Of a DNA stretch of 64,000 nucleotides, positions 8,532 through 56,576 are shown in pieces. Below the pieces are notes generated by a model. It made no database searches, was not told the origin of the DNA, and was given only the letters and a program-made list of their open reading frames with translations. The first letter of the stretch is position 1, and the number at the start of each line of letters is the position of its first letter. Origin of the DNA: Escherichia phage UPEC03; sequence record MW250785; one strand, written 5' to 3'. Position numbers and translations under genes: made by a program.

Positions 8532-8608
8532 GGCCCTTTAGCTTAATTGGTTAGAGCGGGTGACTCATAATCGCGCGGTTGCTGGTTCGAATCCAGCAGG
8601 GGCCACCA
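8532..8608 (+). tRNA. tRNA-Met (anticodon CAU; could also be a lysidine-type Ile)
   Basis: Hand-folded cloverleaf. Acceptor GGCCCTT/AGGGGCC, anticodon loop CTCATAA, T-arm GCTGG-TTCGAAT-CCAGC, encoded CCA. There is one G-G mismatch at the top of the anticodon stem. Confidence 0.85.
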
Positions 8609-8613
8609 AATAC

Positions 8614-8689
8614 GCAGGTGTAGTTCAATTGGTAGAATATCTGGTTTCCATCCAGATTGTTGAGGGTTCGAGTCCCTTCACCTGCTCCA
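8614..8689 (+). tRNA. tRNA-Gly (anticodon UCC)
   Basis: Acceptor GCAGGTG/CACCTGC, anticodon stem TCTGG/CCAGA with loop TTTCCAT, T-arm GAGGG-TTCGAGT-CCCTT, encoded CCA. Confidence 0.9.
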
Positions 8690-10552: not shown

Positions 10553-10573
10553 CGTTTTTATGCAAAATAATGC

Positions 10574-10602
10574 TTGCACTGAATCAGGCTTTCTTGTATC
10601 TT
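10574..10602 (+). promoter_or_regulatory. Sigma70-type early promoter
   Basis: TTGCAC, 17 nt spacer, TATCTT. The upstream AAATAATGCTTGC is shared with the promoter at 14957. Confidence 0.5.
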
Positions 10603-10643
10603 TAACCACGTAGGCAAGACAACTTAACTTTGAGGATGACATT

Positions 10644-14589: not shown

Positions 14590-14604
14590 ATAGCACTTTT
14601 TGCT

Positions 14605-14643
14605 AAAAAGCCCCTTGCATGAGTAAGGGGCTTTTGTTATATT
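14605..14643 (+). promoter_or_regulatory. PeSL-type terminator/early-promoter stem-loop (class A)
   Basis: Hairpin 14609-14632 with T-run. -35 TTGCAT (14615-14620) sits in the loop, then a 17-nt spacer and -10 TATATT (14638-14643). Downstream: leader CATCGAAACGAAAC, SD AGGA and ATG 14681. Confidence 0.75.
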
Positions 14644-14680
14644 ACAAACATCGAAACGAAACAGACAAAAGGAACATCCC

Positions 14681-14956: not shown

Positions 14957-14989
14957 TTGCTTACTGGGTAATGTAGTGGTACATTACCC
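14957..14989 (+). promoter_or_regulatory. Early promoter overlapped by a perfect 10-bp stem-loop (class B)
   Basis: TTGCTT (14957-14962), 17 nt spacer, TACATT (14980-14985). Stem GGGTAATGTA/TACATTACCC (14966-14975 / 14980-14989). Leader TATCGAAACGAAAGGAG. Confidence 0.6.
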
Positions 14990-15014
14990 ATATCGAAACG
15001 AAAGGAGAAACATC

Positions 15015-15675: not shown

Positions 15676-16039
15676 ACCAAGTAAAACTATCCGCCTGATC
15701 CGTTGGGAAGGGCAAGAAATCCGTTATGAAGACGACGACCGCGAATTCGTCCATGAAATGCTTGCGCATAATCTGGGATTCAAAAACGCCGCACTGGTGA
15801 TGATGCAACAAACCAGCGATGAAGACACCTGGCAATGCGTCATTCTCGATCTGGACAAAAACAAGGAATACACCGAAGATGAACTGTTTGCGCTCACAGA
15901 GAACGCTACAGCGCGTCAGAAGTGCTTCATGATCGATATGCCTCGCGAGAACTACGAGAATATCAAGAAAGCCCGTAAACAGAACAAGAACAACGTGTTC
16001 GACCTGTTCATGGGCTATCATGAAGAAACTACGGCCTAA
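15665..16039 (+). CDS. Acidic hypothetical protein (124 aa)
   Basis: Overlaps the upstream ORF by 11 nt. Its stop codon overlaps the stop of convergent gene 27. Confidence 0.5.
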   Translation: MKNEPSKTIRLIRWEGQEIRYEDDDREFVHEMLAHNLGFKNAALVMMQQTSDEDTWQCVILDLDKNKEYTEDELFALTENATARQKCFMIDMPRENYENIKKARKQNKNNVFDLFMGYHEETTA

Positions 16040-17780: not shown

Positions 17781-19525
17781 TAATGGCTAGCAATCCATAT
17801 TTTAACGAAGAACAACGTCGCCGGATGCAGAATCCACCAAAACCACAGGCGCAACCGACTGTTCGTAAGATCCAGGCAACGTTAGATAAAGATTCGATGC
17901 GCGAGTTAAAGGATATCAATGATAATACCCTTGAAACCGCGCTGAATACACTGGACATCAAAGACAGTGTGAAATCCTTTGAGGATCGTTTCAAAGAGAA
18001 ATTCGCTGGCTTCCAGGAACAATACGAACAGGATCAGCAACCACTTGCTGAACAGTTGCCCGATTTTGTTGGGCCAGCGCGTCCACCATCATTAACAGAC
18101 AACAGCACAACCAGTGTTGATAACTCCGTCAGTGTATCGAACCAGCATAACCCATTTGCGAAAATCGAAACATACACCGGAACGATTGCAGAAGCAATCA
18201 CCAAGTTTATCGAACTCGCTGAAAAGAAACCAGCCCCCGCGCCGGAACCTGAACCAGTACCGGAAGAGGAACCGGAGGTCGATCGGGACAAGAAGAAGAT
18301 CCGCGATAAGGATAAAGACGAGAAGAAATTCAGCAAGAAAGTATTGTCTTTGCTGGGTGCAATCAAGGATAATACATCCGGTCTTCTGGCTCGCTTTATC
18401 GGTTATTCTCTCGAAGCGCTGGCGAAGTTTGCAAAATGGACTCTGATTATCGGTAGTATCGTATTTGCGATCGACGTACTGAGTAAGGTTGTTCAGAAGT
18501 GGTTCCAGGATATTCTTGCAGAGGGTGAAGCCTCGAAAGATTTGTTTGGTTCATACTTCGGGAATATCAAAACCCTTGCTGAGAAAATCAACGAAGGTCT
18601 GCAAAACTTTGATATGAGTAATTTGGGCGAATCGCTGAAAAACTTGTTCCTTGAACCGTTTAAGGTTCTGGGCGATACCATCAAAACCGCAATCACGGAA
18701 GGTATCGGTAATCTGATTTACGCTCTGGGTGAATATACCGGATCTGAAACAATTACCAACGCCGGACGCGGAATGAAAGTATCAGCACTGCGCGACAAAC
18801 AAAAATACGGTCTTGAAATTGATCCCGATGACCTGATTCTGCTGAAACAGCAGGAGATCCAGGATCAGAATGATAAAGTGGTTGAGGCACGTTCTAAGGT
18901 TGTCGAACAGGTTAAGGCTACCCAGGGCGCATTCTCATATAGTTTCGGACAGCAAACAGACGCACAGAAAGCATTGTCTAAGCAATTGGAACAGATGCGC
19001 GATCGTGTGGCTATTGAAGAAAAGATCACCGAAGAGAAGAAGAAAGAACTGAAAGCATTGCAGGAAAACCCCGCACTGTTACAGGCTGAGGTTGATAAAG
19101 AGAATACCGCTAATCGTAAGCGCGTGGACGAAACCAAACAGATCGAAGCCGCGCAAGCGAAAGCGAAACCTAAAGCGGATAATGAATTCGATCAGGGCGA
19201 TGAAATCCTGAACAAAGACAATCTGACGGGCAACGATAAAAAGGTAATGGAAAAACTCATAGAATCGCTTGAAGAGAAAAACAACTCCAAGAAACTTGAC
19301 GAAGACGATAGCGAACGATTCCGCTCAATGCTTGACCAGTGGCAGAACAAGATCGCCGCAGTACCGGAAAGCAGTGCAAGTATTGACAAGCAACCGGAAG
19401 CAGTGAAAGCCCCTGTTCAGCCTACAACGCCTAACAGCGTTCAGGTCAACAACAAAACAGTAAACAACACGGTTCAGCATTCAGTACAACGAACTGACCG
19501 TAAATCATTGATTGCATTAGCTTAA
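17777..19525 (+). CDS. 29: Baseplate hub / tail-length determinator gp29
   Basis: 582 aa (T4 gp29 is about 590). Low-complexity acidic/Pro-rich N-terminal third and long coiled-coil regions. Position 28-29-48. Confidence 0.7.
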   Translation: MIMASNPYFNEEQRRRMQNPPKPQAQPTVRKIQATLDKDSMRELKDINDNTLETALNTLDIKDSVKSFEDRFKEKFAGFQEQYEQDQQPLAEQLPDFVGPARPPSLTDNSTTSVDNSVSVSNQHNPFAKIETYTGTIAEAITKFIELAEKKPAPAPEPEPVPEEEPEVDRDKKKIRDKDKDEKKFSKKVLSLLGAIKDNTSGLLARFIGYSLEALAKFAKWTLIIGSIVFAIDVLSKVVQKWFQDILAEGEASKDLFGSYFGNIKTLAEKINEGLQNFDMSNLGESLKNLFLEPFKVLGDTIKTAITEGIGNLIYALGEYTGSETITNAGRGMKVSALRDKQKYGLEIDPDDLILLKQQEIQDQNDKVVEARSKVVEQVKATQGAFSYSFGQQTDAQKALSKQLEQMRDRVAIEEKITEEKKKELKALQENPALLQAEVDKENTANRKRVDETKQIEAAQAKAKPKADNEFDQGDEILNKDNLTGNDKKVMEKLIESLEEKNNSKKLDEDDSERFRSMLDQWQNKIAAVPESSASIDKQPEAVKAPVQPTTPNSVQVNNKTVNNTVQHSVQRTDRKSLIALA

Positions 19526-23235: not shown

Positions 23236-23733
23236 TTATTCCATCACGATCCAGCCCATTAGCTGTTGATATCGCAATTCGAACGGGGTGATGAAAGAGC
23301 GGTTATTGATAACCTTCGTCCCGTTGTAGGACTTAATCACTTCTTCACCACGAAGTACATATTCGTATACTTCGTCCATAGTGTCGTAACGCACTTCTTC
23401 GACTTCGAAGCAGAAGTTGGAATATTCAATCATCCCGATCTTGTTCGCGTAACGACGTTCGATACAACCCTGTTTTTCAATCTGAGTAATCGCAGTATCA
23501 ATGAACTGCGCAAGTGCTTGCATGAAATTACCACATTCGACTTCACGGCCCCCGCTTGAGATAGCCAGGTAAACGCGGTTCAATCCATCATTACCGATGT
23601 AGCCGATGCAATCGCCACCGATATTAACAGCCCACACTTTACCCATTGGCCCCATACCCATTCTGTTCTCACTACGAGAAACACCTTTCAGTAACAGTGC
23701 CATGATACCGCCGCGAACGTAATTCATTTTCAT
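23236..23733 (-). CDS. Hypothetical protein (165 aa)
   Basis: SD AAGGGG upstream. Confidence 0.6.
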   Translation of the reverse strand: MKMNYVRGGIMALLLKGVSRSENRMGMGPMGKVWAVNIGGDCIGYIGNDGLNRVYLAISSGGREVECGNFMQALAQFIDTAITQIEKQGCIERRYANKIGMIEYSNFCFEVEEVRYDTMDEVYEYVLRGEEVIKSYNGTKVINNRSFITPFELRYQQLMGWIVME

Positions 23734-24186: not shown

Positions 24187-24224
24187 GTTCTCGTTCCTTT
24201 TGGCTGTTCCGTTTCGATATGTGT

Positions 24225-24263
24225 AATATAACAAAGCCCTCACCGAGAGGCAAGGGCTTTTTT
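24225..24263 (-). promoter_or_regulatory. PeSL-type terminator/early-promoter stem-loop (class A)
   Basis: - strand: hairpin 24260-24233, -35 TTGCCT (24253-24248), 17 nt spacer, -10 TATATT (24230-24225), leader ACACATATCGAAACGGAAC. Confidence 0.7.
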
Positions 24264-26016: not shown

Positions 26017-28263
26017 TTAGATTTTGACTTCTTTTTCTTCCAGGACGATTTCACATTCGAATGATGTGGTTTCCCAGACTTTCCAGAAATCGGATGGAAT
26101 ATTATCTTCTTTCGGAAGAATATCTTTTGCAGCGATAGAAACTTTGGTTTCTTCGAAGTCCAGATCCGCGAACCATGCATGGGCTACTACAACACCGTAC
26201 ATTACGCGACTTAAACGGGCATTCAGTTTACGGACTTCCTGAATCGTTGCCTTTGTCTGCTTATCAAGATACTCGACTACCTGATCTTTGTCAAGCGCAT
26301 CCAGTTCAGATTTCACCTGATCGTAAGCCCACAGGATAATCAGGTCGCCGTTGTTCAGTTTCTTCTTACCTTCGTCACGTTTCGCGACGGTAGCCGCTAC
26401 AGCAGGAAGGGAGGAAACACCCTTGACTTTCACGTTCAGTTCTTTCGACATGTAAACATCAGTCGATTCTGTGCGCTCAACCTTCGGAGAGAACCCGTAA
26501 TCACGAATATCCTGTTCAGACAGCCATTCACCCGCTGCATCACCAAAGCGCTGTTTCAGCCCTTCTGCGTTGCGCAGTCCGATCGCGTTGTCACGGAAGA
26601 ACTTCATAACCTTCTGACGGCCTTTCAGGATTTCCAGACGCACGTTATCAGTCACGAACTCTTTACCGCTTAACCCGCGAGTCATGCCACGGTTAACCAG
26701 AGGCAGAGAGGTAAAGTCTACCAGTACCGACATACGGTCATCACCGATTTTTTCCAGCGGCTTGATAGTCAGGCCAGAAGCGCGAAGGTTTTTCAGTGTC
26801 GGAATATCAGTTTCCAGCGGCAGAACTTTCACGTTCACGATACCATCTTTAACGATGGTGAAGTTACGCACCTGCTTAGTTTCGATTTTTTCCGGCAGAC
26901 CGAATTCTTTCTGTTTGCTTTCTGGGATAGTCACATACCCTTCCAGATCCGTGTTGATGGAAATGTTAGGACGGGAACTGTTACCCACCAGATGTTTAAC
27001 CGATACTTTGGTTGTGGTCTGGGTAAATTTCGGTGTCCAGACTTCATGCGCTACCATTTGCGCCGCCAGTGCTTTACGTTCTTCTGGGATTGCAGCGTTT
27101 GCGATCTGTTCGGTCAGTTGATCCAGTGTATCATCTTCTTTCTGTACAGTCTGACGGCCTGTGCGGTTATACGCCCAGTGCTCAGAAGACAGGTCGATCA
27201 CTGTGTCAGTTTGTGCCAGCAGTTCGAGCGCATCAACCAGAGTGAACGCGTTTTCGTCTGGAACCATGTTGTAATCAATACCATCAACGAAACGCTGTGA
27301 TGGATCTACAACAGCCTGTGCAATCAGGTCTTTCGCGTTGGAGTAGTCCTGTTTGGTAAAGCAGTTGTCATACGCCTTGATCAGACGGACATCACCCAGC
27401 TTTTGAAGCACTTTCCATGCCAGATCAGGGTTCATTGTGTGCAGTGCATGATAAAGCACGACATACAGAACTTGCTGTTCGCTGGCGATGTTCGGATCGA
27501 ATCCGTCAACATCATTAATCGCGTTTTCACCCAGCGCCCAGATGTTTTTGATGTGTTCTGGAACTAGCACAACACCGTTTGCAGCGTTCAGGACATACAC
27601 GCACCCTTCGTCCAGGTAGATCGCATGGGTAGCATCAGCAACTTTGACTTCGATACGCGCGGAAGTCTGCGCGGTGATGATTTCGTTAAATGCTGGTTCG
27701 TATGCGTCGAAACCTTCAACGAATTTGTGCAATGCGTTGGTTGCTTCTGCCATTTTTTCCAGCAGAGGACGGTTTACATAATAACCGTATTCCAGGAACG
27801 CGATACTGTTGAAAGTCAGTGGCAGAACCGCACACGCTTTCAGAATATCATCGGTACGCCAGCAGTTATCATAACCATCAGTCAGGAAGATCAGGCTGTT
27901 CAGGTTGCCGTTTTCAGATTGCAGATCGGTAGCGATTTCCGCAGCCAGATTCAACGGCTCAACAAAGCCAGTACAACCCGTAGGTTTCAGGTAACGGTCG
28001 ATAGCCGCGCAGATGTTAGACAGGTCAGAGACATTGCTAACCTTCTCACCACGGAACACCGTGCCGTAATCGCCTTTGCTGGAGAAGTACAGGATCGAAA
28101 CGGTGTCATCCTGTTTAACCAGACTCGCCAGATTTGCTTTCAGGTGTTTACGGATCTTAGGCAGTTCGTTGTACATTGAACCGGATACGTCACACACGAA
28201 AACGTGGTTTGTCGGGGTTGGCTTCGATACAGCGTTTTTGAATTCGATATTTGTGATTGACAT
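26017..28263 (-). CDS. von Willebrand factor A (vWA) domain protein with complete MIDAS motif
   Basis: 748 aa. N-terminal vWA with DVSGSM (DxSxS), TGCTGF (Thr) and IFLTDG (Asp). About 550 aa of unassigned C-terminal sequence. Confidence 0.8.
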   Translation of the reverse strand: MSITNIEFKNAVSKPTPTNHVFVCDVSGSMYNELPKIRKHLKANLASLVKQDDTVSILYFSSKGDYGTVFRGEKVSNVSDLSNICAAIDRYLKPTGCTGFVEPLNLAAEIATDLQSENGNLNSLIFLTDGYDNCWRTDDILKACAVLPLTFNSIAFLEYGYYVNRPLLEKMAEATNALHKFVEGFDAYEPAFNEIITAQTSARIEVKVADATHAIYLDEGCVYVLNAANGVVLVPEHIKNIWALGENAINDVDGFDPNIASEQQVLYVVLYHALHTMNPDLAWKVLQKLGDVRLIKAYDNCFTKQDYSNAKDLIAQAVVDPSQRFVDGIDYNMVPDENAFTLVDALELLAQTDTVIDLSSEHWAYNRTGRQTVQKEDDTLDQLTEQIANAAIPEERKALAAQMVAHEVWTPKFTQTTTKVSVKHLVGNSSRPNISINTDLEGYVTIPESKQKEFGLPEKIETKQVRNFTIVKDGIVNVKVLPLETDIPTLKNLRASGLTIKPLEKIGDDRMSVLVDFTSLPLVNRGMTRGLSGKEFVTDNVRLEILKGRQKVMKFFRDNAIGLRNAEGLKQRFGDAAGEWLSEQDIRDYGFSPKVERTESTDVYMSKELNVKVKGVSSLPAVAATVAKRDEGKKKLNNGDLIILWAYDQVKSELDALDKDQVVEYLDKQTKATIQEVRKLNARLSRVMYGVVVAHAWFADLDFEETKVSIAAKDILPKEDNIPSDFWKVWETTSFECEIVLEEKEVKI

Positions 28264-30170: not shown

Positions 30171-30205
30171 GGTATGTTCCTTTTCAGTTTCGTTTCGGTA
30201 AAGCT

Positions 30206-30234
30206 AATGTATCACTATCCTGGTCAGTATGCAA
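30206..30234 (-). promoter_or_regulatory. Sigma70-type early promoter; -35 lies in the last codons of the HNH gene
   Basis: - strand TTGCAT (30234-30229), 17 nt spacer, TACATT (30211-30206), leader ACCGAAACGAAAC. Confidence 0.6.
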
Positions 30235-34598: not shown

Positions 34599-35654
34599 TC
34601 AGAGTCCCGTGAAAGCTACAACGATTTGATAGTGGTCATCGAAGAATTCCCCTTGTCGTTGTACGACCTCATGTAAGGGCATCCAGAACGCCTCTAACGC
34701 ATCGTCAGAACCGCCCATAATGCGGGGCAGACTACCATCATTGTTAGGCTCTAACTTGATGTACTGCGCCACAGTCGGTTTTGAGAAGTGTACGGAACGC
34801 TTCGGATGATCGAACAACATCGAATTGCGGATTGAACCACGGATAACCTTTTCAGGAACCTTGATCCGTACCTCTTCGAGCAGTTCGCGGATCGCACAAT
34901 CCAGGAACGTTTCATTTGCGTTTTTGTGTCCGCCGGGAAGGGCTAACGCGTCTTTACCTGGGGCGAACTTACGACGAATTACCAGCAGGTGATTGTTGCA
35001 CACAACCACACTATCACCCGTGCAACAGTTTAGCGCGTCGGGGTATGGGTAGTTTTTGAATTTCTCCAATTCGCTTTCCCATTTCTCGTATTCGTAGAAT
35101 AAACGCCAGAACGTGTCTTCCATCATCCATTTGTCGATATAATCAACGGTTGCTTGAGGAACAAAGCGCAACAGTTTCTTATCCCACCCGTTTTTATGGT
35201 TAAAGATAATCGGACGCAGATCGGTTGCTGATAGATCCTTGCCGTTAATCTGGACAGGTGGAACTGGTACGTGTGTCCATCCGAACGCTTTAAGCCAGTA
35301 TGAACCTGCATCTTTTTCGTAACCGTAGATAGCGATTTTGTCGCCTTTGGTTTCCCTGATAGCAGTACGAACAGAGGTTTTCCATTTCTCTTCGTTGTAA
35401 AGATAATCTGGAATGTGCTCAAACTGAACACGAACAACATCTTCGATCGGGAAGTTAGCGTTTAACCATGAGAAGATCATGGTTTGACGCTCACGCGCCG
35501 TCAGCGGGTTTAAAACGTTAGGGTAAGCATATGCTGAACCCAGAAGGATGTAAACGATCTTTGCTTCTCCGAGTGCTTTACGCACCATTGCTGCATGACC
35601 ATTATGGAAGGGTTGGAATCTGCCAATTACGACAGCTTTATCAAATTGTTTCAT
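34599..35654 (-). CDS. natV: Bifunctional NMN adenylyltransferase / Nudix hydrolase (NatV-like)
   Basis: 351 aa from ATG 35654. N-terminal GRFQPFHNGH (HxGH nucleotidyltransferase motif). C-terminal Nudix box GGHKNANETFLDCAIRELLEEV. Confidence 0.8.
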   Translation of the reverse strand: MKQFDKAVVIGRFQPFHNGHAAMVRKALGEAKIVYILLGSAYAYPNVLNPLTARERQTMIFSWLNANFPIEDVVRVQFEHIPDYLYNEEKWKTSVRTAIRETKGDKIAIYGYEKDAGSYWLKAFGWTHVPVPPVQINGKDLSATDLRPIIFNHKNGWDKKLLRFVPQATVDYIDKWMMEDTFWRLFYEYEKWESELEKFKNYPYPDALNCCTGDSVVVCNNHLLVIRRKFAPGKDALALPGGHKNANETFLDCAIRELLEEVRIKVPEKVIRGSIRNSMLFDHPKRSVHFSKPTVAQYIKLEPNNDGSLPRIMGGSDDALEAFWMPLHEVVQRQGEFFDDHYQIVVAFTGL

Positions 35655-36754: not shown

Positions 36755-36780
36755 TGGGTTTATGTTTCAATTCGATAGTT

Positions 36781-40259: not shown

Positions 40260-40871
40260 TTAGTATGAATCGTTTTCGATAGGGGTATAATAATGGGTTT
40301 CGCAGACATAAGCAAGCACTGATCGCAAACTATCGCTTTCAAATTCTGGCTTTTGATTGAGTTCCAGACTCCAGCCAGTGAAGCACATCCAGCGTTCTTC
40401 TGCAACGTCAAAGGCTAACCAATACATGTTGAACTGTGAACATGTATGTTCGAAGATGTCGAATAGTAGTTTACCGCCGATCGGTTTCACATATGGTTTC
40501 ACGCGTTGAAGCGATTTCAGGACTGTTTCGAGGTTACTGCGATCCTCATTCATCGCGATACGAAGAATATGCTGATTGGTTTCTGGGTTGTATCCATCAA
40601 TCCCCAACCCCATATCCTGGAAGAACTTAGTCGCATCATGGAAAATCTCTCGTCCGCTGTTCGGGGAATTGATGTAAAACTTAATGCGTTGTTTTGGAGT
40701 CATCGCGCGGACACGGGAAGCGGTTTTGTGATCGATCTCTTCTTTGATGTCTTTGCGAGCGTTCAGAAGTTTATTCAGCTTTTCCTGGTAAGGTTTCATT
40801 ACCGCCCTGATCTCGTCGATACGTTCATCAACGATCGCTAACTGCTGTTCCGGTGTCAGTTTAGTTTCCAT
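40260..40871 (-). CDS. Hypothetical protein (203 aa)
   Basis: Tightly packed with its neighbours. Confidence 0.6.
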   Translation of the reverse strand: METKLTPEQQLAIVDERIDEIRAVMKPYQEKLNKLLNARKDIKEEIDHKTASRVRAMTPKQRIKFYINSPNSGREIFHDATKFFQDMGLGIDGYNPETNQHILRIAMNEDRSNLETVLKSLQRVKPYVKPIGGKLLFDIFEHTCSQFNMYWLAFDVAEERWMCFTGWSLELNQKPEFESDSLRSVLAYVCETHYYTPIENDSY

Positions 40872-46918: not shown

Positions 46919-46959
46919 TTCAATCCCCTTGTTTATCTGTTTCGTTGTCTACGAGAGAG

Positions 46960-46987
46960 ATATTATCACAACGGGGATTAGTGTCAA
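46960..46987 (-). promoter_or_regulatory. Sigma70-type early promoter
   Basis: - strand TTGACA (46987-46982), 16 nt spacer, TAATAT (46965-46960), leader ...GACAACGAAACAG. ATCCCC (46979-46974) can pair with the SD GGGGAT (46928-46923). Confidence 0.65.
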
Positions 46988-46990
46988 CAG

Positions 46991-47254
46991 TTATTCGAAA
47001 CGAATTGTGCTATTTTTGAAAAACATTCCAGAGCACACAGATCCTTTGATCTGCTTGCCGTTCACACCAGTTGCTTCGAATCCGGTTGAGTATGTGTCTT
47101 TTTCAGAACATGCAAACCACTTGTAACCCGTGAACTGGATGTTCGTATAACCCTGTGCTTCCAGGATACGCTGTGCCTCTTTCTCGTCAGTACAGCTTGA
47201 CTGCAAGAACACAACAACGACAACCATCAAAATACACACAACAATTTTCCACAT
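46991..47254 (-). CDS. Probable lipoprotein / signal-anchored small protein (87 aa)
   Basis: MWKIVVCILMVVVVVFLQSSC. Hydrophobic N-terminus with a lipobox-like LQSSC, which is not canonical at -3. Confidence 0.5.
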   Translation of the reverse strand: MWKIVVCILMVVVVVFLQSSCTDEKEAQRILEAQGYTNIQFTGYKWFACSEKDTYSTGFEATGVNGKQIKGSVCSGMFFKNSTIRFE

Positions 47255-49849: not shown

Positions 49850-50056
49850 TCAGAATTTAATGTGGGATTGGAAAACAGCACGAGCAAGTGTTTCGCTATC
49901 GAACGGGATTGATGTTCCCTGGTCTTTGCTGTCAATGTTAACGCGCCAGAACTCACTAGACCCGTTTTTGGTGGAGTAATGCATCAGCGTTACCGTCTTA
50001 TTCTTTTCCAGGAAGGTGCGTTTATCAATCTCTGTTTTTATTTCGTGCTGCATCAT
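49850..50056 (-). CDS. Hypothetical protein (68 aa)
   Basis: ATGA coupling. Confidence 0.5.
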   Translation of the reverse strand: MMQHEIKTEIDKRTFLEKNKTVTLMHYSTKNGSSEFWRVNIDSKDQGTSIPFDSETLARAVFQSHIKF

Positions 50057-50313
50057 TTTACACTCCGTTTCAGTTTACGTTCGTCAGCCAGTTCTTTTTT
50101 GTACGTTTTGATGTACTTCCCGTTAAGGATGCGAAGCTGTTGGAAAACTTTGTTGCACAAAGCACGTTTTGCTTTGTATTCCTGCGTATTACGGATTGAT
50201 TCGACCGTCATACCCATTTCGTTTTTAGGGTACGCGCTCAACTCCCTGCCGATCTCTCTGTGCCAGTTGCTTAACTGATCACGCTGTGCTTTGTACTCTT
50301 CAAAAGTTAACAT
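50053..50313 (-). CDS. Basic hypothetical protein (86 aa)
   Basis: SD GGAG upstream; first ORF after the promoter stem-loop. Confidence 0.55.
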   Translation of the reverse strand: MLTFEEYKAQRDQLSNWHREIGRELSAYPKNEMGMTVESIRNTQEYKAKRALCNKVFQQLRILNGKYIKTYKKELADERKLKRSVK

Positions 50314-50337
50314 AACAATCTCCGGTTTCGTTTCTAT

Positions 50338-50372
50338 GTGTGTAAGGTATCATTACCCTACACACAACGCAA
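50338..50372 (-). promoter_or_regulatory. Early promoter overlapped by a 12-bp stem-loop (class B)
   Basis: - strand TTGCGT (50372-50367), 17 nt spacer, TACCTT (50349-50344). The stem 50365-50354 / 50349-50338 has one pair that is G-U only on the - strand RNA. Leader ATAGAAACGAAACC. Confidence 0.55.
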
Positions 50373-50379
50373 GCGATTT

Positions 50380-50580
50380 TTATTTTCCGTAAAGAACACA
50401 ATATTCTTTATATTTTTCACGGGCTTTTTCTTCATTACTAAAGGAAACTCCCATTCCAAAATCAGAACCTTCGAACGTAACATCCCACGATTCATACCCA
50501 TCTTCCGAATAATAGGAAAGTGTTATTTTACGATCTTCAAGAACAAGTTGTTCAACAACAATATCAATTTCAGTAGTCAT
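50380..50580 (-). CDS. Hypothetical protein (66 aa)
   Basis: ATGA-coupled to the upstream 48-aa ORF. Confidence 0.55.
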   Translation of the reverse strand: MTTEIDIVVEQLVLEDRKITLSYYSEDGYESWDVTFEGSDFGMGVSFSNEEKAREKYKEYCVLYGK

Positions 50581-50723
50581 AGTTCATTTCCATAATCTTT
50601 TGCTGCATCTTCGGGGGTTGCGTCCAGTCGGTAAAGCTCAACGGCTAACGGACTGGGTTTGATTTCGCGGTTCAGGATCTCACTGATACCGCGAAGGAAT
50701 TCGATATAAGGACGGAATCTCAT
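50577..50723 (-). CDS. Hypothetical protein (48 aa; below track cutoff)
   Basis: MRFRPYIEFLRGISEILNREIKPSPLAVELYRLDATPEDAAKDYGNEL. ATGA overlaps at both ends fill an otherwise 139-nt gap. Confidence 0.55.
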   Translation of the reverse strand: MRFRPYIEFLRGISEILNREIKPSPLAVELYRLDATPEDAAKDYGNEL

Positions 50724-50971
50724 TTGATACGTACCGCGTTAAAAGCCTGGTTGCGCAGTTCATAAGCCTGTTCAAGCTGTTCTGTAGTGAACAGAGGACT
50801 ATCGGTGTTAGTGGTGAAACTGCAAATGGTTTTGTTGTCGGCGTTAACTTCTTCAACAACGATTTCATAACCCCAGATCCCGCTGTACTCACATTTCACG
50901 TTACGGTACTTGATGTAAACCGCAGCAACATCTTCTTTTTTGTAGTTCCGGCTTTTGTAGATGATTTCCAT
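50720..50971 (-). CDS. Hypothetical protein (83 aa)
   Basis: ATG 50971 preceded by GAAGGAGGATATC. The longer track ORF reads through the PeSL. Confidence 0.6.
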   Translation of the reverse strand: MEIIYKSRNYKKEDVAAVYIKYRNVKCEYSGIWGYEIVVEEVNADNKTICSFTTNTDSPLFTTEQLEQAYELRNQAFNAVRIK

Positions 50972-50998
50972 GATATCCTCCTTCGTTTCGATGTGTGT

Positions 50999-51037
50999 AA
51001 TATAACAAAACCCCTCACCATAGACAAGGGGTTTCTT
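50999..51037 (-). promoter_or_regulatory. PeSL-type terminator/early-promoter stem-loop (class A)
   Basis: - strand hairpin 51034-51008, -35 TTGTCT (51027-51022), 17 nt spacer, -10 TATATT (51004-50999), leader ACACACATCGAAACGAAGGAGG. Confidence 0.7.
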
Positions 51038-51053
51038 TAACAAAAAGTGCTAT

Positions 51054-51656
51054 TTAATAGTATCCAGGATCTTTGAAGTGTGCTTTCATATATCGCAGAA
51101 TTTCACGCAACATCTGGGTTTGCTCATGTCCACACTGTGAAGCCATATCGATCATGACGCGAGTCATTTCGACGTTCTCCAAGCTGGTTATACGCTGTTT
51201 TAAGGCTTTGTTTTCCTCTTCCAACTCAACCATACGGTCATATGCTTTGATGCGCTCCAAAGGCATATCAGGGCGCTGTTTGAGGACACGGGCGCGTGAC
51301 ACTTCGCATTCGTGATTTGCTTTCCAGTGATCACGTTCACCAGCAATTTTATCATTCTCCTGGTGTAGACGTACAATCTCTTTAAGGAGGCGTTCAGTGG
51401 TATCGGGATCAAACGAAACCATGTATTGCATCAGGGATTGCAACCACAGATCCTCTTGTACCGCCTGTAACGCTTTAGGCCCAATAATGGTAAACTCGCG
51501 TTTCTTCATGTTGCTACCGCAACCGTAGTTAACGTTACCCGCAATCGAACCTGGTTGATTAGTACCATCCCATTTGTCACCGATAACAGGTTTTACTTGC
51601 TGAATAGCACGATTCAGCATTTCGAATTCTTCATCTAAAATCATTTCATATCCCAT
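51054..51656 (-). CDS. Coiled-coil hypothetical protein (200 aa)
   Basis: The central RDHWKANHECEVSRARVLKQRPDMPLERIKAY segment recalls prophage ead/Ea22-like proteins. That is memory only and unverified. Confidence 0.55.
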   Translation of the reverse strand: MGYEMILDEEFEMLNRAIQQVKPVIGDKWDGTNQPGSIAGNVNYGCGSNMKKREFTIIGPKALQAVQEDLWLQSLMQYMVSFDPDTTERLLKEIVRLHQENDKIAGERDHWKANHECEVSRARVLKQRPDMPLERIKAYDRMVELEEENKALKQRITSLENVEMTRVMIDMASQCGHEQTQMLREILRYMKAHFKDPGYY

Positions 51657-52045
51657 AATTCATATTGTGAGCGAAGGATAGCGTAAAGGCTACCGATATG
51701 GATTGTGTCTACCGGACACTGGAAAAGATCCCCGCGCATCATGTTAAACTCGATATCGTTACGTTCAACATAGTTACCGATCATTGATGTCCAACCCATC
51801 ACCAGGTTATAACCATCTTCTGATAACCCATAAGCCAGCCTAACCATGATACAACGCTTATCAGCCAGTTCTACGCGCATATGGGTACTGGTATGAGTGA
51901 CCTTGTTCGGGAATCTGCGAAACATTTTAGTAAGGAGTTTGGCGGTTTCAATATTGAACGCCAGTTCTTGATCCTTACTGGTCTGGTTGTCATGACGGCG
52001 ATTCAGATACTTTTCCATTTTTGGGTTGAGATTCACATGTTGCAT
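51641..52045 (-). CDS. Hypothetical protein (134 aa)
   Basis: Overlaps its neighbours by 13-16 nt. Confidence 0.55.
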   Translation of the reverse strand: MQHVNLNPKMEKYLNRRHDNQTSKDQELAFNIETAKLLTKMFRRFPNKVTHTSTHMRVELADKRCIMVRLAYGLSEDGYNLVMGWTSMIGNYVERNDIEFNMMRGDLFQCPVDTIHIGSLYAILRSQYELWDMK

Positions 52046-52224
52046 AATATATTCCTCACAGGTTTAAAGCGTTCTTTTCCGGTTCCATTACATGAACTGC
52101 ATTTCGGAGATCGGTCGCTATCATATCGCCCAGATCCATTACATGCAACACATTTCCGTAATTTCCAGCCATACACGAACCGCATATAATCGGTTCGTGC
52201 GGCCTTGCGTTCGTGGAAGTTCAT
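52033..52224 (-). CDS. DnaJ-type zinc-finger mini-protein (63 aa)
   Basis: ATG 52224 is ATGA-coupled. Two CxxCxGxG repeats (CVACNGSG, CSSCNGTG). Confidence 0.55.
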   Translation of the reverse strand: MNFHERKAARTDYMRFVYGWKLRKCVACNGSGRYDSDRSPKCSSCNGTGKERFKPVRNILCNM

Positions 52225-52424
52225 ACTTTGTTGTAAACCTGAACAACCCACATTTCGATGTTCGGTGAGTAAGTAACGTTCACCATCGGCATAGTGCGGT
52301 ATTTGTATGCGGCTTTGTACGCATCGAGTTCAGTCGGAACACAGAAAGAGAAACCGTTGTCATAACGTTCTGCGTTAGAAACTTCACAACCAACTACAGA
52401 AGCAATGTTTTTGTTCATGTTCAT
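52221..52424 (-). CDS. Hypothetical protein (67 aa)
   Basis: ATG 52424 preceded by AGAAAGGAAAACATC. The longer track ORF reads through the PeSL. Confidence 0.6.
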   Translation of the reverse strand: MNMNKNIASVVGCEVSNAERYDNGFSFCVPTELDAYKAAYKYRTMPMVNVTYSPNIEMWVVQVYNKV

Positions 52425-52460
52425 GATGTTTTCCTTTCTCTGTTTCGTTTCGATGTGTGT

Positions 52461-52499
52461 AATATAACAAAGCCCCTGCATTGCTGCAAGGGCTTTTTT
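52461..52499 (-). promoter_or_regulatory. PeSL-type terminator/early-promoter stem-loop (class A)
   Basis: - strand hairpin 52496-52469, -35 TTGCAG (52489-52484), 17 nt spacer, -10 TATATT (52466-52461), leader ACACACATCGAAACGAAAC. Confidence 0.7.
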
Positions 52500-52503
52500 C
52501 ACT

Positions 52504-52812
52504 TTAATCGAATTTTTCTGGCAACTGGTCTACAAGTGCTTGAGTTTGATGAAGTTCTTCACTCAATTTATCACGATAATGAACCAATTCGCGGGTTCTT
52601 GATGCGGAATAGCTAATGAGTTTATCAGCGGTAGCGGTGTAACCGTAACCAGCACACGCGATTTCCAGTTTTGCGTTATCGCCGTTAGGTACGCGGATAT
52701 GAGCATACGCCAGCAAGTTTTTAACCGCTTGCAACAGTTCATGATCTTCTTTGCCGATGATAAACTGGTTTGGTTCTGCTGAATCCATATACAGTTCTTC
52801 GTCTTTGTTCAT
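52504..52812 (-). CDS. Hypothetical protein (102 aa)
   Basis: ATGA-coupled to the DUF262 gene. Confidence 0.55.
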   Translation of the reverse strand: MNKDEELYMDSAEPNQFIIGKEDHELLQAVKNLLAYAHIRVPNGDNAKLEIACAGYGYTATADKLISYSASRTRELVHYRDKLSEELHQTQALVDQLPEKFD

Positions 52813-53342
52813 TTTGCAGCCTTATACATTTCCAGGACGCGGTTCATGTGATCTTGAGATTGAGGCACACCCGCGAAGTTCAGTTTGATGAAGAATTCCA
52901 GACGATCCTTTTTGGTGCATTCATCCAGCCCCAGGGCAGGTAATGAAATGTTTTCAAAGGCTCGTTGTTCGTGTCGTGGTATTTCGTCCCAGAACAAACG
53001 GGAACCGTCCGGCATAGGAATCCCAATTTCACCTTCGTAGACTTTGATAATCGTCGTCAGGCGTTGTTTGCCGTCGATCACTTCTACCCAATGGGTTTCG
53101 TTGAACTGACTATCAACCGCGATCGCAATGATACCGCAAGGGAAACCACTGATCAGGGTAGTCAGAAACGCATCTTGCTCTTTCTGCGTCCACACATAGG
53201 GGCGCTGGTAAGATGGATTCAGATCCAGATCTTTATTCTTCCACCAATGCAGATAACTCCCAACCATGATCGCGTGATCGCGACTGCGAAAAGTTAACTG
53301 ATCGCGGATACGGTTATGAACCGGAATATCATCTTTAGACAT
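52809..53342 (-). CDS. Stand-alone DUF262 (ParB/GmrS-like NTPase) domain protein
   Basis: 177 aa. NPSYQRPYVWTQKEQDAFLTTLISGFPCG and VIDGKQRLTTI (DGQQR motif). No DUF1524/HNH nuclease half. Confidence 0.7.
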   Translation of the reverse strand: MSKDDIPVHNRIRDQLTFRSRDHAIMVGSYLHWWKNKDLDLNPSYQRPYVWTQKEQDAFLTTLISGFPCGIIAIAVDSQFNETHWVEVIDGKQRLTTIIKVYEGEIGIPMPDGSRLFWDEIPRHEQRAFENISLPALGLDECTKKDRLEFFIKLNFAGVPQSQDHMNRVLEMYKAAK

Positions 53343-53664
53343 GATTCACCACCCAGCCCAACAAACCAGTATTGATAGCCGCAACGGTAAGGCAAATCAC
53401 CGCCAACACCCGCGCGTTATGAACTTTGGTTTTCAGTTCTGCGATCTCCTGATCATTTTCACTTTCGAACTCTTCACGGGTTCCATAGTAACCAGGATCA
53501 GCAGCGGTTGCCGGACGAACTGCATCTTTTTCAACGATGGTTGCATAACCGCTCGTTACTTTCGTTGCTCCGTACCAGTCACCGCGATCGTTATTGATGA
53601 TCAGGTGATCACCCTTCGCGTTATGCTTCGACTTACCAATGACAACTACACGTTCACCATTCAT
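53335..53664 (-). CDS. Tail-anchored membrane protein (109 aa)
   Basis: C-terminal TM helix VLAVICLTVAAINTGLLGWVV. Confidence 0.55.
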   Translation of the reverse strand: MNGERVVVIGKSKHNAKGDHLIINNDRGDWYGATKVTSGYATIVEKDAVRPATAADPGYYGTREEFESENDQEIAELKTKVHNARVLAVICLTVAAINTGLLGWVVNHV

Positions 53665-53671
53665 AATATAA

Positions 53672-53932
53672 TCACTCTTTCACGTTTTGTTGTAAGAACT
53701 CTAACAGCTTTCCTTCGGCCTGTAAAGCATAAAGTTTATTCAGCTTTGCGATATTTTCAAAGTCTGATTTTTCGCTGAACGACCAGACCCCATCATCGGA
53801 AACCAGCGCACCGATTGATACGCCAGTTTCAGGATCACGCGTCAACGCCAGCCCCAGGGGATGCAGGATATCTTTATTGATTTTCCAAATCAGCCCCAAT
53901 TGAGATAAGGTGTTGAAATCAACGTGACTCAT
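53672..53932 (-). CDS. Hypothetical protein (86 aa)
   Basis: ATGA coupling upstream. Confidence 0.55.
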   Translation of the reverse strand: MSHVDFNTLSQLGLIWKINKDILHPLGLALTRDPETGVSIGALVSDDGVWSFSEKSDFENIAKLNKLYALQAEGKLLEFLQQNVKE

Positions 53933-54315
53933 TTAGGCAATGCCCCGAAAGACAGCAGCCCCATACGATGATCGTTATCTGATTCACCAGTGCTGAATTC
54001 AAATTCTTCACCGCTGATACTGATAGCGCGGAAACCGTCTTTCAGGTATGGCAACAGATACAGAGGGATCAGCATCATGTTTGAATCGTCGCTCCACTTA
54101 CGGAAGCCCAGATTTTTCATTTCTTCCAGCGTCAAATCATTCGGATCGACGGGTTCGAAATCAGGGGAAGCGTAAAGGCGTCCAGGCAGATCGCGAATAT
54201 TTTTCACGGTGAATGAATCACCCCAGGACTGATACACGGTAGGTTCAGCGGCGCGGGTTGCGGTAGCCAGGAGGATCATTTGACAGATTTGAAAAGTTGT
54301 TGCTTTTGGTTTCAT
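53929..54315 (-). CDS. Hypothetical protein (128 aa)
   Basis: ATGA-coupled to the Nudix gene. Confidence 0.55.
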   Translation of the reverse strand: MKPKATTFQICQMILLATATRAAEPTVYQSWGDSFTVKNIRDLPGRLYASPDFEPVDPNDLTLEEMKNLGFRKWSDDSNMMLIPLYLLPYLKDGFRAISISGEEFEFSTGESDNDHRMGLLSFGALPK

Positions 54316-56510: not shown

Positions 56511-56537
56511 GATTGCCTCCTTTGTTTCGACACCCCT

Positions 56538-56576
56538 AATATAACAAAAGCCCCTGCACGAATGCAAGGGCTTTTT
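56538..56576 (-). promoter_or_regulatory. PeSL-type terminator/early-promoter stem-loop (class A)
   Basis: - strand hairpin 56574-56547, -35 TTGCAT (56567-56562), 18 nt spacer, -10 TATATT (56543-56538), leader ..GTCGAAACAAAGGAGG. Confidence 0.65.

Follow-up and report, generated by a model that had tools for sequence, protein, structure and literature searches.

A 13-nucleotide sequence repeated at predicted transcription starts of early promoters in Escherichia phage UPEC03 and shared with unrelated phages

The DNA considered here, referred to as the window, is a stretch of 64,000 nucleotides (nt) from Escherichia phage UPEC03 (record MW250785), which by its sequence is a T4-like phage, a Pseudotevenvirus of the RB16/RB43/GAP161 group. 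In the segment from 50000 to 54000, its identity to the Cronobacter phage GAP161 is 98.6% and that to RB16 about 90%. A long series of small leftward early genes, annotated as 'hypothetical' in GAP161 and RB16, lies in this region, and the leader of one of these genes carries, at 52442, a copy of the 13-base motif ATCGAAACGAAAC. A preliminary description of this DNA had noted near-identical leaders immediately downstream of the -10 boxes of nine early transcription units and had proposed several functions for them.

When up to two mismatches are allowed, the motif is matched 12 times in the whole window compared with 3.57 expected matches, and none of 100 shuffles reached this number. The repetition of the motif is thus real and non-random. 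Seven of the matches are strong leader copies (two exact, four with one mismatch, one with two mismatches), four are intragenic and one is a degenerate promoter copy at 36764. The intragenic matches at 26874, 40859, 45412, and 46018 have two mismatches each and are at chance level. Three degenerate promoter copies exist besides the seven strong ones (Table 1), two of which (40270-40280 and 36764-36776) are additional to those of the preliminary description. Among the nine leaders of the preliminary description, the seven strong copies and the one at 56519-56531 stand in register with their promoters, whereas the copy ACAACGAAACAG is out of register; the positions given for the copies had been off by a few bases. 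ACAACGAAACAG is kept in orthologues, and its membership in the motif family is doubtful. Upstream of the TTGACA promoter at 46960 (46960-47000, minus strand), the sequence TTCGTTTCGAAT is the complement of the CGAAAC core in the leader of the same promoter, by which read-through transcripts could pair across this promoter.

Early promoters were predicted by scanning for TTGnnn-N16-18-TAnnnT followed by an open reading frame (ORF). About 19 credible early promoters are predicted in the window, and the motif is present at about 10 of these 19; a consensus scan lists the promoters at 50999 and 24225. In all strong copies, the motif starts exactly 6 nt past a TAnnnT -10 hexamer, which is preceded by TGn and by a TTGnnn element at 17 bp. 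The distance of 6 nt is kept in nine of the 10 copies, while the degenerate copy at 36764 starts 4 nt past the -10 hexamer. These 6 nt form a mostly pyrimidine-rich discriminator, and the motif opens with an A that follows a pyrimidine, so that transcription is predicted to start at the A of ATCG. With this A of ATCGAAAC as the start, the motif would represent positions +1 to +13 of the mRNA. A placement of the motif at roughly +5 to +20, as first assumed, does not agree with the position of any strong copy.

Table 1. Copies of the motif, associated promoters, and cassettes in the window; promoters are given as -35, spacer length in bp, and -10 (SD, Shine-Dalgarno sequence; UTR, untranslated region)
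Feature	Positions	Strand	Details
Exact motif, predicted +1 to +13	52442..52454	-	ATCGAAACGAAAC; copy described first
Early sigma-70-type promoter	52461..52489	-	-35 TTGCAG (52484-52489), 17-bp spacer, TGn-extended -10 TATATT (52461-52466)
6 nt between -10 and motif	at the 52442 copy	-	ACACAC, following TATATT
Intrinsic-terminator hairpin, PeSL-type	52469..52496	-	12 pairs, 6 GC; includes the -35; T-tail enters the -10
Remainder of the 30-nt 5' UTR and start codon	52422..52441	-	AGAGAAAGGAAAACATC, SD AAGGAA; ATG (52422-52424), 67-aa ORF
Full cassette with exact motif	14590..14662	+	T1-type 21-nt repeat core ATAGCACTTTTTGCTAAA (14590-14607), hairpin (14606-14635), TTGCAT-17-TATATT (14615-14643), exact motif (14650-14662)
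Promoter without hairpin, motif with one mismatch	14957..15004	+	TTGCTT-17-TGgTACATT (14957-14985), motif ATCGAAACGAAAG (14992-15004)
Hairpin, promoter, motif with one mismatch	24206..24260	-	hairpin (24233-24260), TTGCCT-17-TATATT (24225-24253), motif ATCGAAACGGAAC (24206-24218)
Promoter without hairpin, motif with one mismatch	30187..30234	-	TTGCAT-17-TGaTACATT (30206-30234), motif ACCGAAACGAAAC (30187-30199)
Promoter without hairpin, motif with one mismatch	50325..50372	-	TTGCGT-17-TGaTACCTT (50344-50372), motif ATAGAAACGAAAC (50325-50337)
Full cassette, strong copy with two mismatches	50980..51053	-	21-nt repeat core ATAGCACTTTTTGTTAAA (51036-51053), hairpin (51007-51035), TTGTCT-17-TATATT (50999-51027), motif ATCGAAACGAAGG (50980-50992) merging into the SD
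Hairpin, promoter, degenerate in-register motif	56519..56575	-	hairpin (56546-56575), TTGCAT-18-TATATT (56538-56567), motif GTCGAAACAAAGG (56519-56531)
Degenerate in-register copy	40270..40280	-	ATCGAAAACGA, 6 nt past TATTAT
Degenerate copy	36764..36776	-	ATCGAATTGAAAC, 4 nt past TAGAAT (TTGACA-16-TGaTAGAAT)
Weakest copy listed earlier, in a leader	46937..46948	-	ACAACGAAACAG, 11 nt past the -10, out of register

Five of the copies are part of a composite element, in which a GC hairpin of 12-13 pairs with the -35 inside its stem is followed by TTTGTTATATT. In these hairpin cassettes, TTTGTTATATT doubles as terminator tail and extended -10, and it is followed by ACACAC, the motif, an A-rich stretch, AAGGAA, and ATG. 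Hairpins are present at 14606, 24233, 51007, 52469, and 56546 and absent at 14985, 30206, 50344, 40287, and 36781. The cassettes end in an SD (AAGGA or GGAG) and an ATG, with UTRs of 20-32 nt and ORFs of 46-308 aa, nearly all of which are annotated as 'hypothetical protein' in GAP161 and RB16.

Composite units of terminator, early promoter, and SD-ATG have been named PeSL in the phage pairs RB49/phi1, T4/PST, and KVP40/nt-1 (Arbiol 2010, PMC2839356; Comeau 2014, PMC4122927), and both papers also mention PeSL-like sequences in RB43. In the earlier paper, promoter and terminator activity as well as mini-circles were studied with lacZ fusions and inverse PCR, and crossovers in RB49 were mapped between -10 and SD/ATG (PMC2839356). 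In the early-promoter logos for RB43 (Nolan et al.), position 0 is the putative start site according to the figure legend. The window cassettes share with PeSLs the upstream stop codon, the sigma-70-type early promoter, the SD, and the ATG, and about half of the motif promoters also the GC stem-loop terminator over -35 and -10. Like PeSLs, they precede small ORFans and are associated with indels and replacements between close relatives. RB49 PeSL leaders share the theme of the initial transcribed sequence (ITS) in the same register, with ATCAAAACGAAAC, ATCGAAACGAGAT, and ATCGAAAACAACGAGAGG. In contrast, the component lists in the accessible text of the PeSL papers comprise an AT-rich region, -35, -10, stem-loop, SD, and ATG and single out no conserved transcribed motif (PMC2839356, PMC4122927). 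In addition, full PeSLs make up about half of the motif promoters of the window, the stem-loop being absent from the others, and conservation of the motif does not depend on the remaining cassette. In the GenBank record of KP15, such cassettes (e.g., 35136-35173 and 18060-18100) are labelled 'putative middle promoter; discovered using MEME' and overlap annotated terminators; by their sequence, these cassettes look like sigma-70 early promoters.

The conservation of the motif was compared with that of its surroundings by calculating mean identities between the hairpin-class and the non-hairpin-class promoters of the window. Between the two classes, identity was 0.88 for the motif (+1 to +13), 0.78 for the -10 hexamer and likewise for the -35 hexamer, and 0.60 for the discriminator (-6 to -1), but it was 0.34 for the spacer, 0.33 for positions +14 to +26, and 0.37 for the upstream region (-60 to -36). 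The preliminary description had considered that the leaders might be alike through recent copying of whole cassettes, in which case the flanks should be equally conserved. The flanks are far less conserved than the motif, and cassette copying alone therefore fails to explain its conservation. Among orthologous promoters of GAP161, RB16, RB43, and KP15, identity is 91.5% for the motif, 91.4% for the -10, 76% for the spacer, and 86% for the discriminator. Within the motif, G4-A5-A6 and G9-A10 are conserved to 97-100% in the orthologues and position 3 varies most. The 13-mer is as conserved as the -10 hexamer and independent of the rest of the cassette, which points to selection on the first transcribed bases.

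Recombination at the element is evident from sequence comparisons, in which homology to GAP161, RB16, RB43, and KP15 breaks at the -10 or leader of the promoters 10602 (+), 50999 (-), and 30206 (-). At 10602, the same gene has a motif leader in GAP161 and an unrelated leader in the window. The promoter at 50999 belongs to a hairpin cassette in the window, in place of which GAP161, RB16, and KP15 have different upstream sequence fused at the -10. At 30206, matches to RB16 and RB43 are restricted to the leader (positions 50-109 of the query), and both flanks differ. The leader swap at about 10560-10640 (+) exchanges a ATCGAAACGAAAC leader in GAP161 for an unrelated 35-nt leader in the window in phages that are 98% identical, and the swapped segment is flanked by TTGC(A/G)CTGAATC and TGAGGATGACATTATG.

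Outside the window, a 45-nt probe reaching from the -10 to the SD matched 221 phage records, mostly of Pseudotevenvirus and Slopekvirus with 3-8 copies each. The leader part of the probe alone was matched in Certrevirus CR9, in the Drexlerviridae W011D and Klebsiella phage P1, and in others. The CR9 copy is embedded in TTGCAT-16-TGtTATTAT-ctcttc-ATCGAAACGAAACAAACAAAAGGAA-ATG. For W011D and Klebsiella phage P1, the match to two of the window cassettes also extends over the upstream part, which consists of AATAGCACTTTTTGTTAAAA, a short hairpin, and the -10. The proteins encoded downstream of the motif in CR9, W011D, and Klebsiella phage P1 are unrelated.

The Drexlerviridae matches connect the motif with a 21-nt repeat, aaATAGCACnnnTTGnTAAAA, reported for the phages TLS, T1, Rtp, and Rogue1, where 18 copies lie in intergenic regions at a distance of about 76 nt upstream of start codons; its function was put among the open questions by the authors of the TLS paper of 2024 (PMC11447400). 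W011D has 16 copies of the repeat, 15 of which precede a promoter. In these 15 cases, the repeat is followed by about 19 nt that often form a hairpin and by the -10; 6 nt past the -10 there is an A/C-rich, T-free start, examples of which are ATCGAAACGAAAC, AACGAAACGAAAC, ATCAACAAACGAAAC, and ACACCAAACGAAAGG. An 80-nt cassette of W011D matches 918 phage records. In the window, the core of the 21-mer (ATAGCACTTTTTGYTAAA) is found at 14590-14607 (+) and 51036-51053 (-), oriented along transcription and 91 and 82 nt before the ATG, respectively; the other motif copies are without it. The T1-like repeat and the two window copies have in common that they are intergenic, oriented with transcription, and lead into a hairpin and a -10, after which come 6 nt and the ITS consensus. 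The TLS paper treats the 21-mer alone and does not mention the downstream part with -10 and ATCGAAACGAAAC (PMC11447400). The two versions differ in that the T4-like one has a TTGCAT -35 in the hairpin at 17 bp, whereas the T1-like one has no -35 at canonical spacing. In W011D (e.g., 15773-15822, minus, and 23243-23304, plus), about 22 nt separate the TTGnTA of the repeat from the -10, with a short hairpin in between. The elements of the window are PeSL-type early promoter cassettes and T1-type repeat promoters and, as such, of a known kind. The presence of cassettes with the 21-nt repeat both in a T4-like genome and in Drexlerviridae implies that regulatory cassettes are exchanged between unrelated phage families.

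A pool of 42 promoters from the window, W011D, and RB49 gave the consensus A-T-C-G/A-A-A-A-C-A/G-A-A-A-N-A for positions +1 to +14. Judged by these sequences, the motif appears to be the peak of a graded consensus, A-T-C-R-A-A-A-C-R-A-A-A-N, at early promoters of several unrelated phage families. A scan of IMG/VR for CATCGAAACGAAAC yielded at least 123 occurrences, at least 97 of them distinct, and register was judged by the offset of the -10, not by raw counts. Among the matches listed, 58 of the 97 distinct occurrences have a TAnnnT that ends exactly 6 nt before the A, with 0-6 at other offsets; a composition-matched control 14-mer has TAnnnT at this offset in 4 of 100 occurrences among the matches listed. 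The sequences upstream of the IMG/VR matches listed form 59 clusters, of which 32 have an in-register -10.

About half of these listed occurrences are on lambdoid-type contigs of 40-55 kb, which carry variable operator-like repeats upstream of the motif and of an N-type leader with boxA. BLAST places this class with phi80, HK225, and HK639. In the phi80 record, the CI operators and the -35 and -10 of pL are followed 6 nt on by the motif, with the boxA of nutL at +59 and N 410 nt downstream; the pL start of phi80 is the exact 13-mer. The remaining IMG/VR contexts are assorted TTGACA-type promoters and a TAGACT class with a short leader without SD. A separate class on three IMG/VR contigs, occurring twice on one of them, reads ..CTGTAGACT-6 nt-ATCGAAACGAAACGACCCATG; its start sequence agrees with that of the other copies, but its 18-nt leader has no recognisable SD. 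In phage lambda, a near-motif, GATACGAAACGAAGC, is located in the N leader (about 35400-35420, minus strand) about 110 nt past the pL start. As phi80-type phages have the motif at pL +1, this sequence may be a coincidence or a relic.

An origin of the motif in bacterial chromosomes, or mimicry of host genes, was considered and rejected. A 23-nt leader had three matches in 185,579 bacterial genomes, which fall on two contigs of 176-178 kb, and none in host genes. These contigs are assigned to 'Flagellimonas marina' (NZ_JBHSCL010000010.1, 178,077 bp) and 'Paenibacillus sp. 2TAB23' (NZ_JBFRGD010000016.1, 175,761 bp). One of two stretches on the Flagellimonas contig matches the window at 96.7% identity along 7.7 kb, which indicates phage contamination. 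Both contigs probably represent a contaminating Pseudotevenvirus genome, the named hosts being implausible.

The common denominator of the contexts described above is most likely the start site of a strong promoter for unmodified host E-sigma-70 immediately after infection or induction. We regard the motif with moderate confidence as the consensus ITS (+1 to +13) of host-sigma-70 early promoters that is spread by cassette recombination. Among the functions proposed in the preliminary description, a role in promoter escape is best supported by the fixed position of the motif, by its composition, and by its likeness to the starts of the T7 promoters A1 and A3, from which we infer an effect on promoter escape and expression. 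According to this proposal, unmodified host RNA polymerase alone would act on the motif. The complete cassette presents a stop codon, a hairpin with the -35, a TG-extended -10 in the T-tail, a 6-nt pyrimidine-rich discriminator, ATCGAAACGAAAC, an A-rich and U-poor stretch, the SD, and the ATG in this order. The motif would supply an A start after a pyrimidine, and a purine-rich, nearly T-free non-template strand without a pyrimidine-G (YG) step at +5 to +7 would favour productive initiation and fast escape from very strong, escape-limited promoters. The unstructured, U-poor 5' end would be a by-product, and recombination of cassettes within and between phages would spread and homogenise the motif.

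Several observations are consistent with this proposal. Positions +1 to +20 of the non-template strand contain 14-16 purines (70-80%) and one T, and YG steps occur at +3 and +8 only. The ITS is known to alter productive output 50-144-fold; the purine-rich ITS of A1 makes escape facile from several promoters, while its pyrimidine-rich 'anti' form performs about 10-fold worse (PMC12464699). Furthermore, YG at +5 to +7 slows escape (PMC5961368). With start sites as annotated in the T7 record, A1 starts with ATCGAGAGGG and A3 with ATGAAACGACAG, the latter sharing GAAACGA with the motif, and lambda pL has ATCAGCAGG 6 nt past its -10. T7 A1, T7 A3, lambda pL, and phi80 pL resemble the motif in that they begin with A-T-C or A-T-G, preceded by a pyrimidine, at 6-7 nt from the -10 and are purine-rich and U-poor. 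The ITSs of T7 A1, T7 A3, and lambda pL are single sequences, whereas the motif is present in many copies per genome and across families.

Other points weigh against an escape function. The start site is a prediction from sequence, and an ITS effect of ATCGAAACGAAAC itself would have to be deduced from other promoters. CG steps are mildly unfavourable in some promoter contexts (Heyduk & Heyduk, PMC5961368), and the motif has such steps at +3/+4 and +8/+9, so that it is not obviously 'optimal' by known rules. The 13-mer is also conserved beyond what a need for purine-rich, T-free composition requires, so that a sequence-specific reader, a 5'-end function of the RNA, or homogenisation driven by recombination may be involved. 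At 10602 (+) the motif is missing in the window and present on the orthologous gene of GAP161; it is therefore dispensable at least there. Finally, cassettes that were transferred horizontally, and not independent selection, could account for its sharing across families.

If a sequence-specific reader is assumed, ATCGAAACGAAAC might be a pan-phage 'launch sequence' that was acquired by, or arose convergently in, T4-like, T1-like, phi80-type lambdoid, and rV5-like enterobacterial phages. It would be read at initiation by host RNA polymerase or by another host factor at the nascent 5' end and would also form the hitherto unrecognised downstream half of the T1-family promoters with the 21-nt repeat. 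We put this forward tentatively. The occurrence of the motif in phage families without shared regulators argues against a reader that is encoded by the phage.

It is rather unlikely that the motif is only a recombination linker, without a role in expression, which provides short homology at module boundaries or is the footprint of crossovers as in PeSL mini-circles and at lambdoid boundaries. Such a function would agree with the breakpoints at the -10 or leader of three promoters, among them the leader-limited matches at 30206 (-), and with the position of PeSL crossovers. It would also agree with phi80-type prophages, which, like the 'linker' sequences at lambdoid boundaries, have the motif exactly at the junction of the variable immunity operators and the N leader. 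Unlike those linkers, the motif coincides with the start of transcription and occurs in virulent phages, too. Moreover, 13 nt are very short for homologous recombination. A linker would give no reason for an A start after a pyrimidine, nor for keeping exactly 6 nt to the -10 across 32 unrelated upstream contexts among the matches listed. The graded, T-avoiding ITS consensus in promoters without the exact motif looks like selection on the transcript start instead.

A function of the motif as a determinant at the 5' end of the RNA is less probable still. In this case, it would slow decay by RppH and RNase E, bind a host protein such as S1, Hfq, or one of the CsrA type, or serve as a ribosome standby site. 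The fixed +1 position agrees equally with a 5'-end and with an ITS function, and computationally nothing sets the two apart. The motif leaders are depleted of U (10.7% compared with 27.8% in the genome, p = 9e-12), which would remove AU-rich sites of the RNase E type. They are also unstructured: the motif UTRs with 30 further nt have minimum free energies of -1 to -5 kcal/mol with z > 0, but the non-motif early leaders of the window are equally unstructured. The window has too few T4-type late promoters (TATAAATA) for a comparison of leaders. A structured RNA was rejected, as the leaders fold no better than shuffles and match no Rfam family; Rfam detected only two tRNAs in the window and had no match at eight lambdoid-type loci. 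The two tRNA genes are adjacent (8532-8686, plus strand) and annotated as tRNA-Met and tRNA-Gly in GAP161. While the spacing to the -10 is constant, the distance from the motif to the start codon varies between UTRs of 20-32 nt in the window and 410 nt at phi80 pL, which makes the motif independent of translation signals and means that a ribosome-standby role cannot be general. Known binding patterns such as (ARN)n or GGA were not recognisable in the motif. Likenesses to the (ARN)n pattern of Hfq, a half-site of PurR/Cra/RbsR, and the NAD-capping consensus were considered and dropped as probable poor fits.

It is improbable that the motif acts as a DNA operator, in which double-stranded DNA at +1 to +13 with its two tandem GAAAC pentamers is bound by a host or phage protein that turns early promoters off or on. 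Repressor sites are typically located over the start; the positions conserved best, G4-A5-A6 and G9-A10, have a 5-bp period, and the left half of the motif (CGAAAC|G) resembles half-sites of the LacI family. However, the motif lacks palindromic symmetry and has no right half-site, the 5-bp spacing sets the repeated units on opposite faces of the helix, and there is no enrichment away from start sites. A shared phage factor is excluded by the occurrence in T4-like, T1-like, lambdoid, and rV5-like phages.

RegA operators are AU-rich and extend over the initiation codon. Like the sites of T4 RegB/S1, they are found in the leaders or translation initiation regions of early genes, where the motif is located as well, and T4-type phages encode RegA and often RegB. 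The copies at 14992 (+) and 50980 (-) even merge into SDs that contain GGAG. T4 RegB targets a GGAG/U tetranucleotide in an unpaired leader, and its sites require GGAG followed by an A-rich tract, with the consensus GG*AGRAYARAA (PMC3014915). The motif itself contains no GGAG, most leaders having AAGGAA; it has one U in 13 bases and forms the 5' end of the leader, 8-18 nt before the SD, rather than lying at the AUG. Pairing with 16S rRNA as a translational enhancer was rejected, too, since the duplex with E. coli 16S rRNA has -5.9 kcal/mol, 99.7% of composition-matched shuffles bind equally well or better, and the longest complementary run is 7 compared with a shuffle mean of 7.2. Thus, the RegA-like or RegB-like target of the preliminary description is largely refuted by the motif's composition and its presence in T1-like, lambdoid, and rV5-like phages, and together with an rRNA-pairing enhancer, which as a common function is weak given the poor pairing, the register to the -10, and the 410 nt to N in phi80, it is very improbable.

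Within this genome, the finding is mostly ordinary, as the repeated leader is part of PeSL-type cassettes, a kind that has been described. A literal-sequence search of the literature found neither the motif nor the 21-mer string in any phage paper searched. Conservation of one start sequence across families at a fixed register did not turn up in the searchable literature either; this is the part worth following up. The first transcribed bases are rarely treated as a promoter motif, and here one sequence in one register joins the unlinked literatures on T4-type PeSLs, T1-like 21-nt repeats, and phi80-type lambdoid pL promoters. If the effect on escape is true, the motif would offer E. coli RNA polymerase a portable 'strong start' of natural origin, would also improve the annotation of early promoters and start sites in phage genomes, and would provide a direct experimental handle on the repeat of the T1 family.

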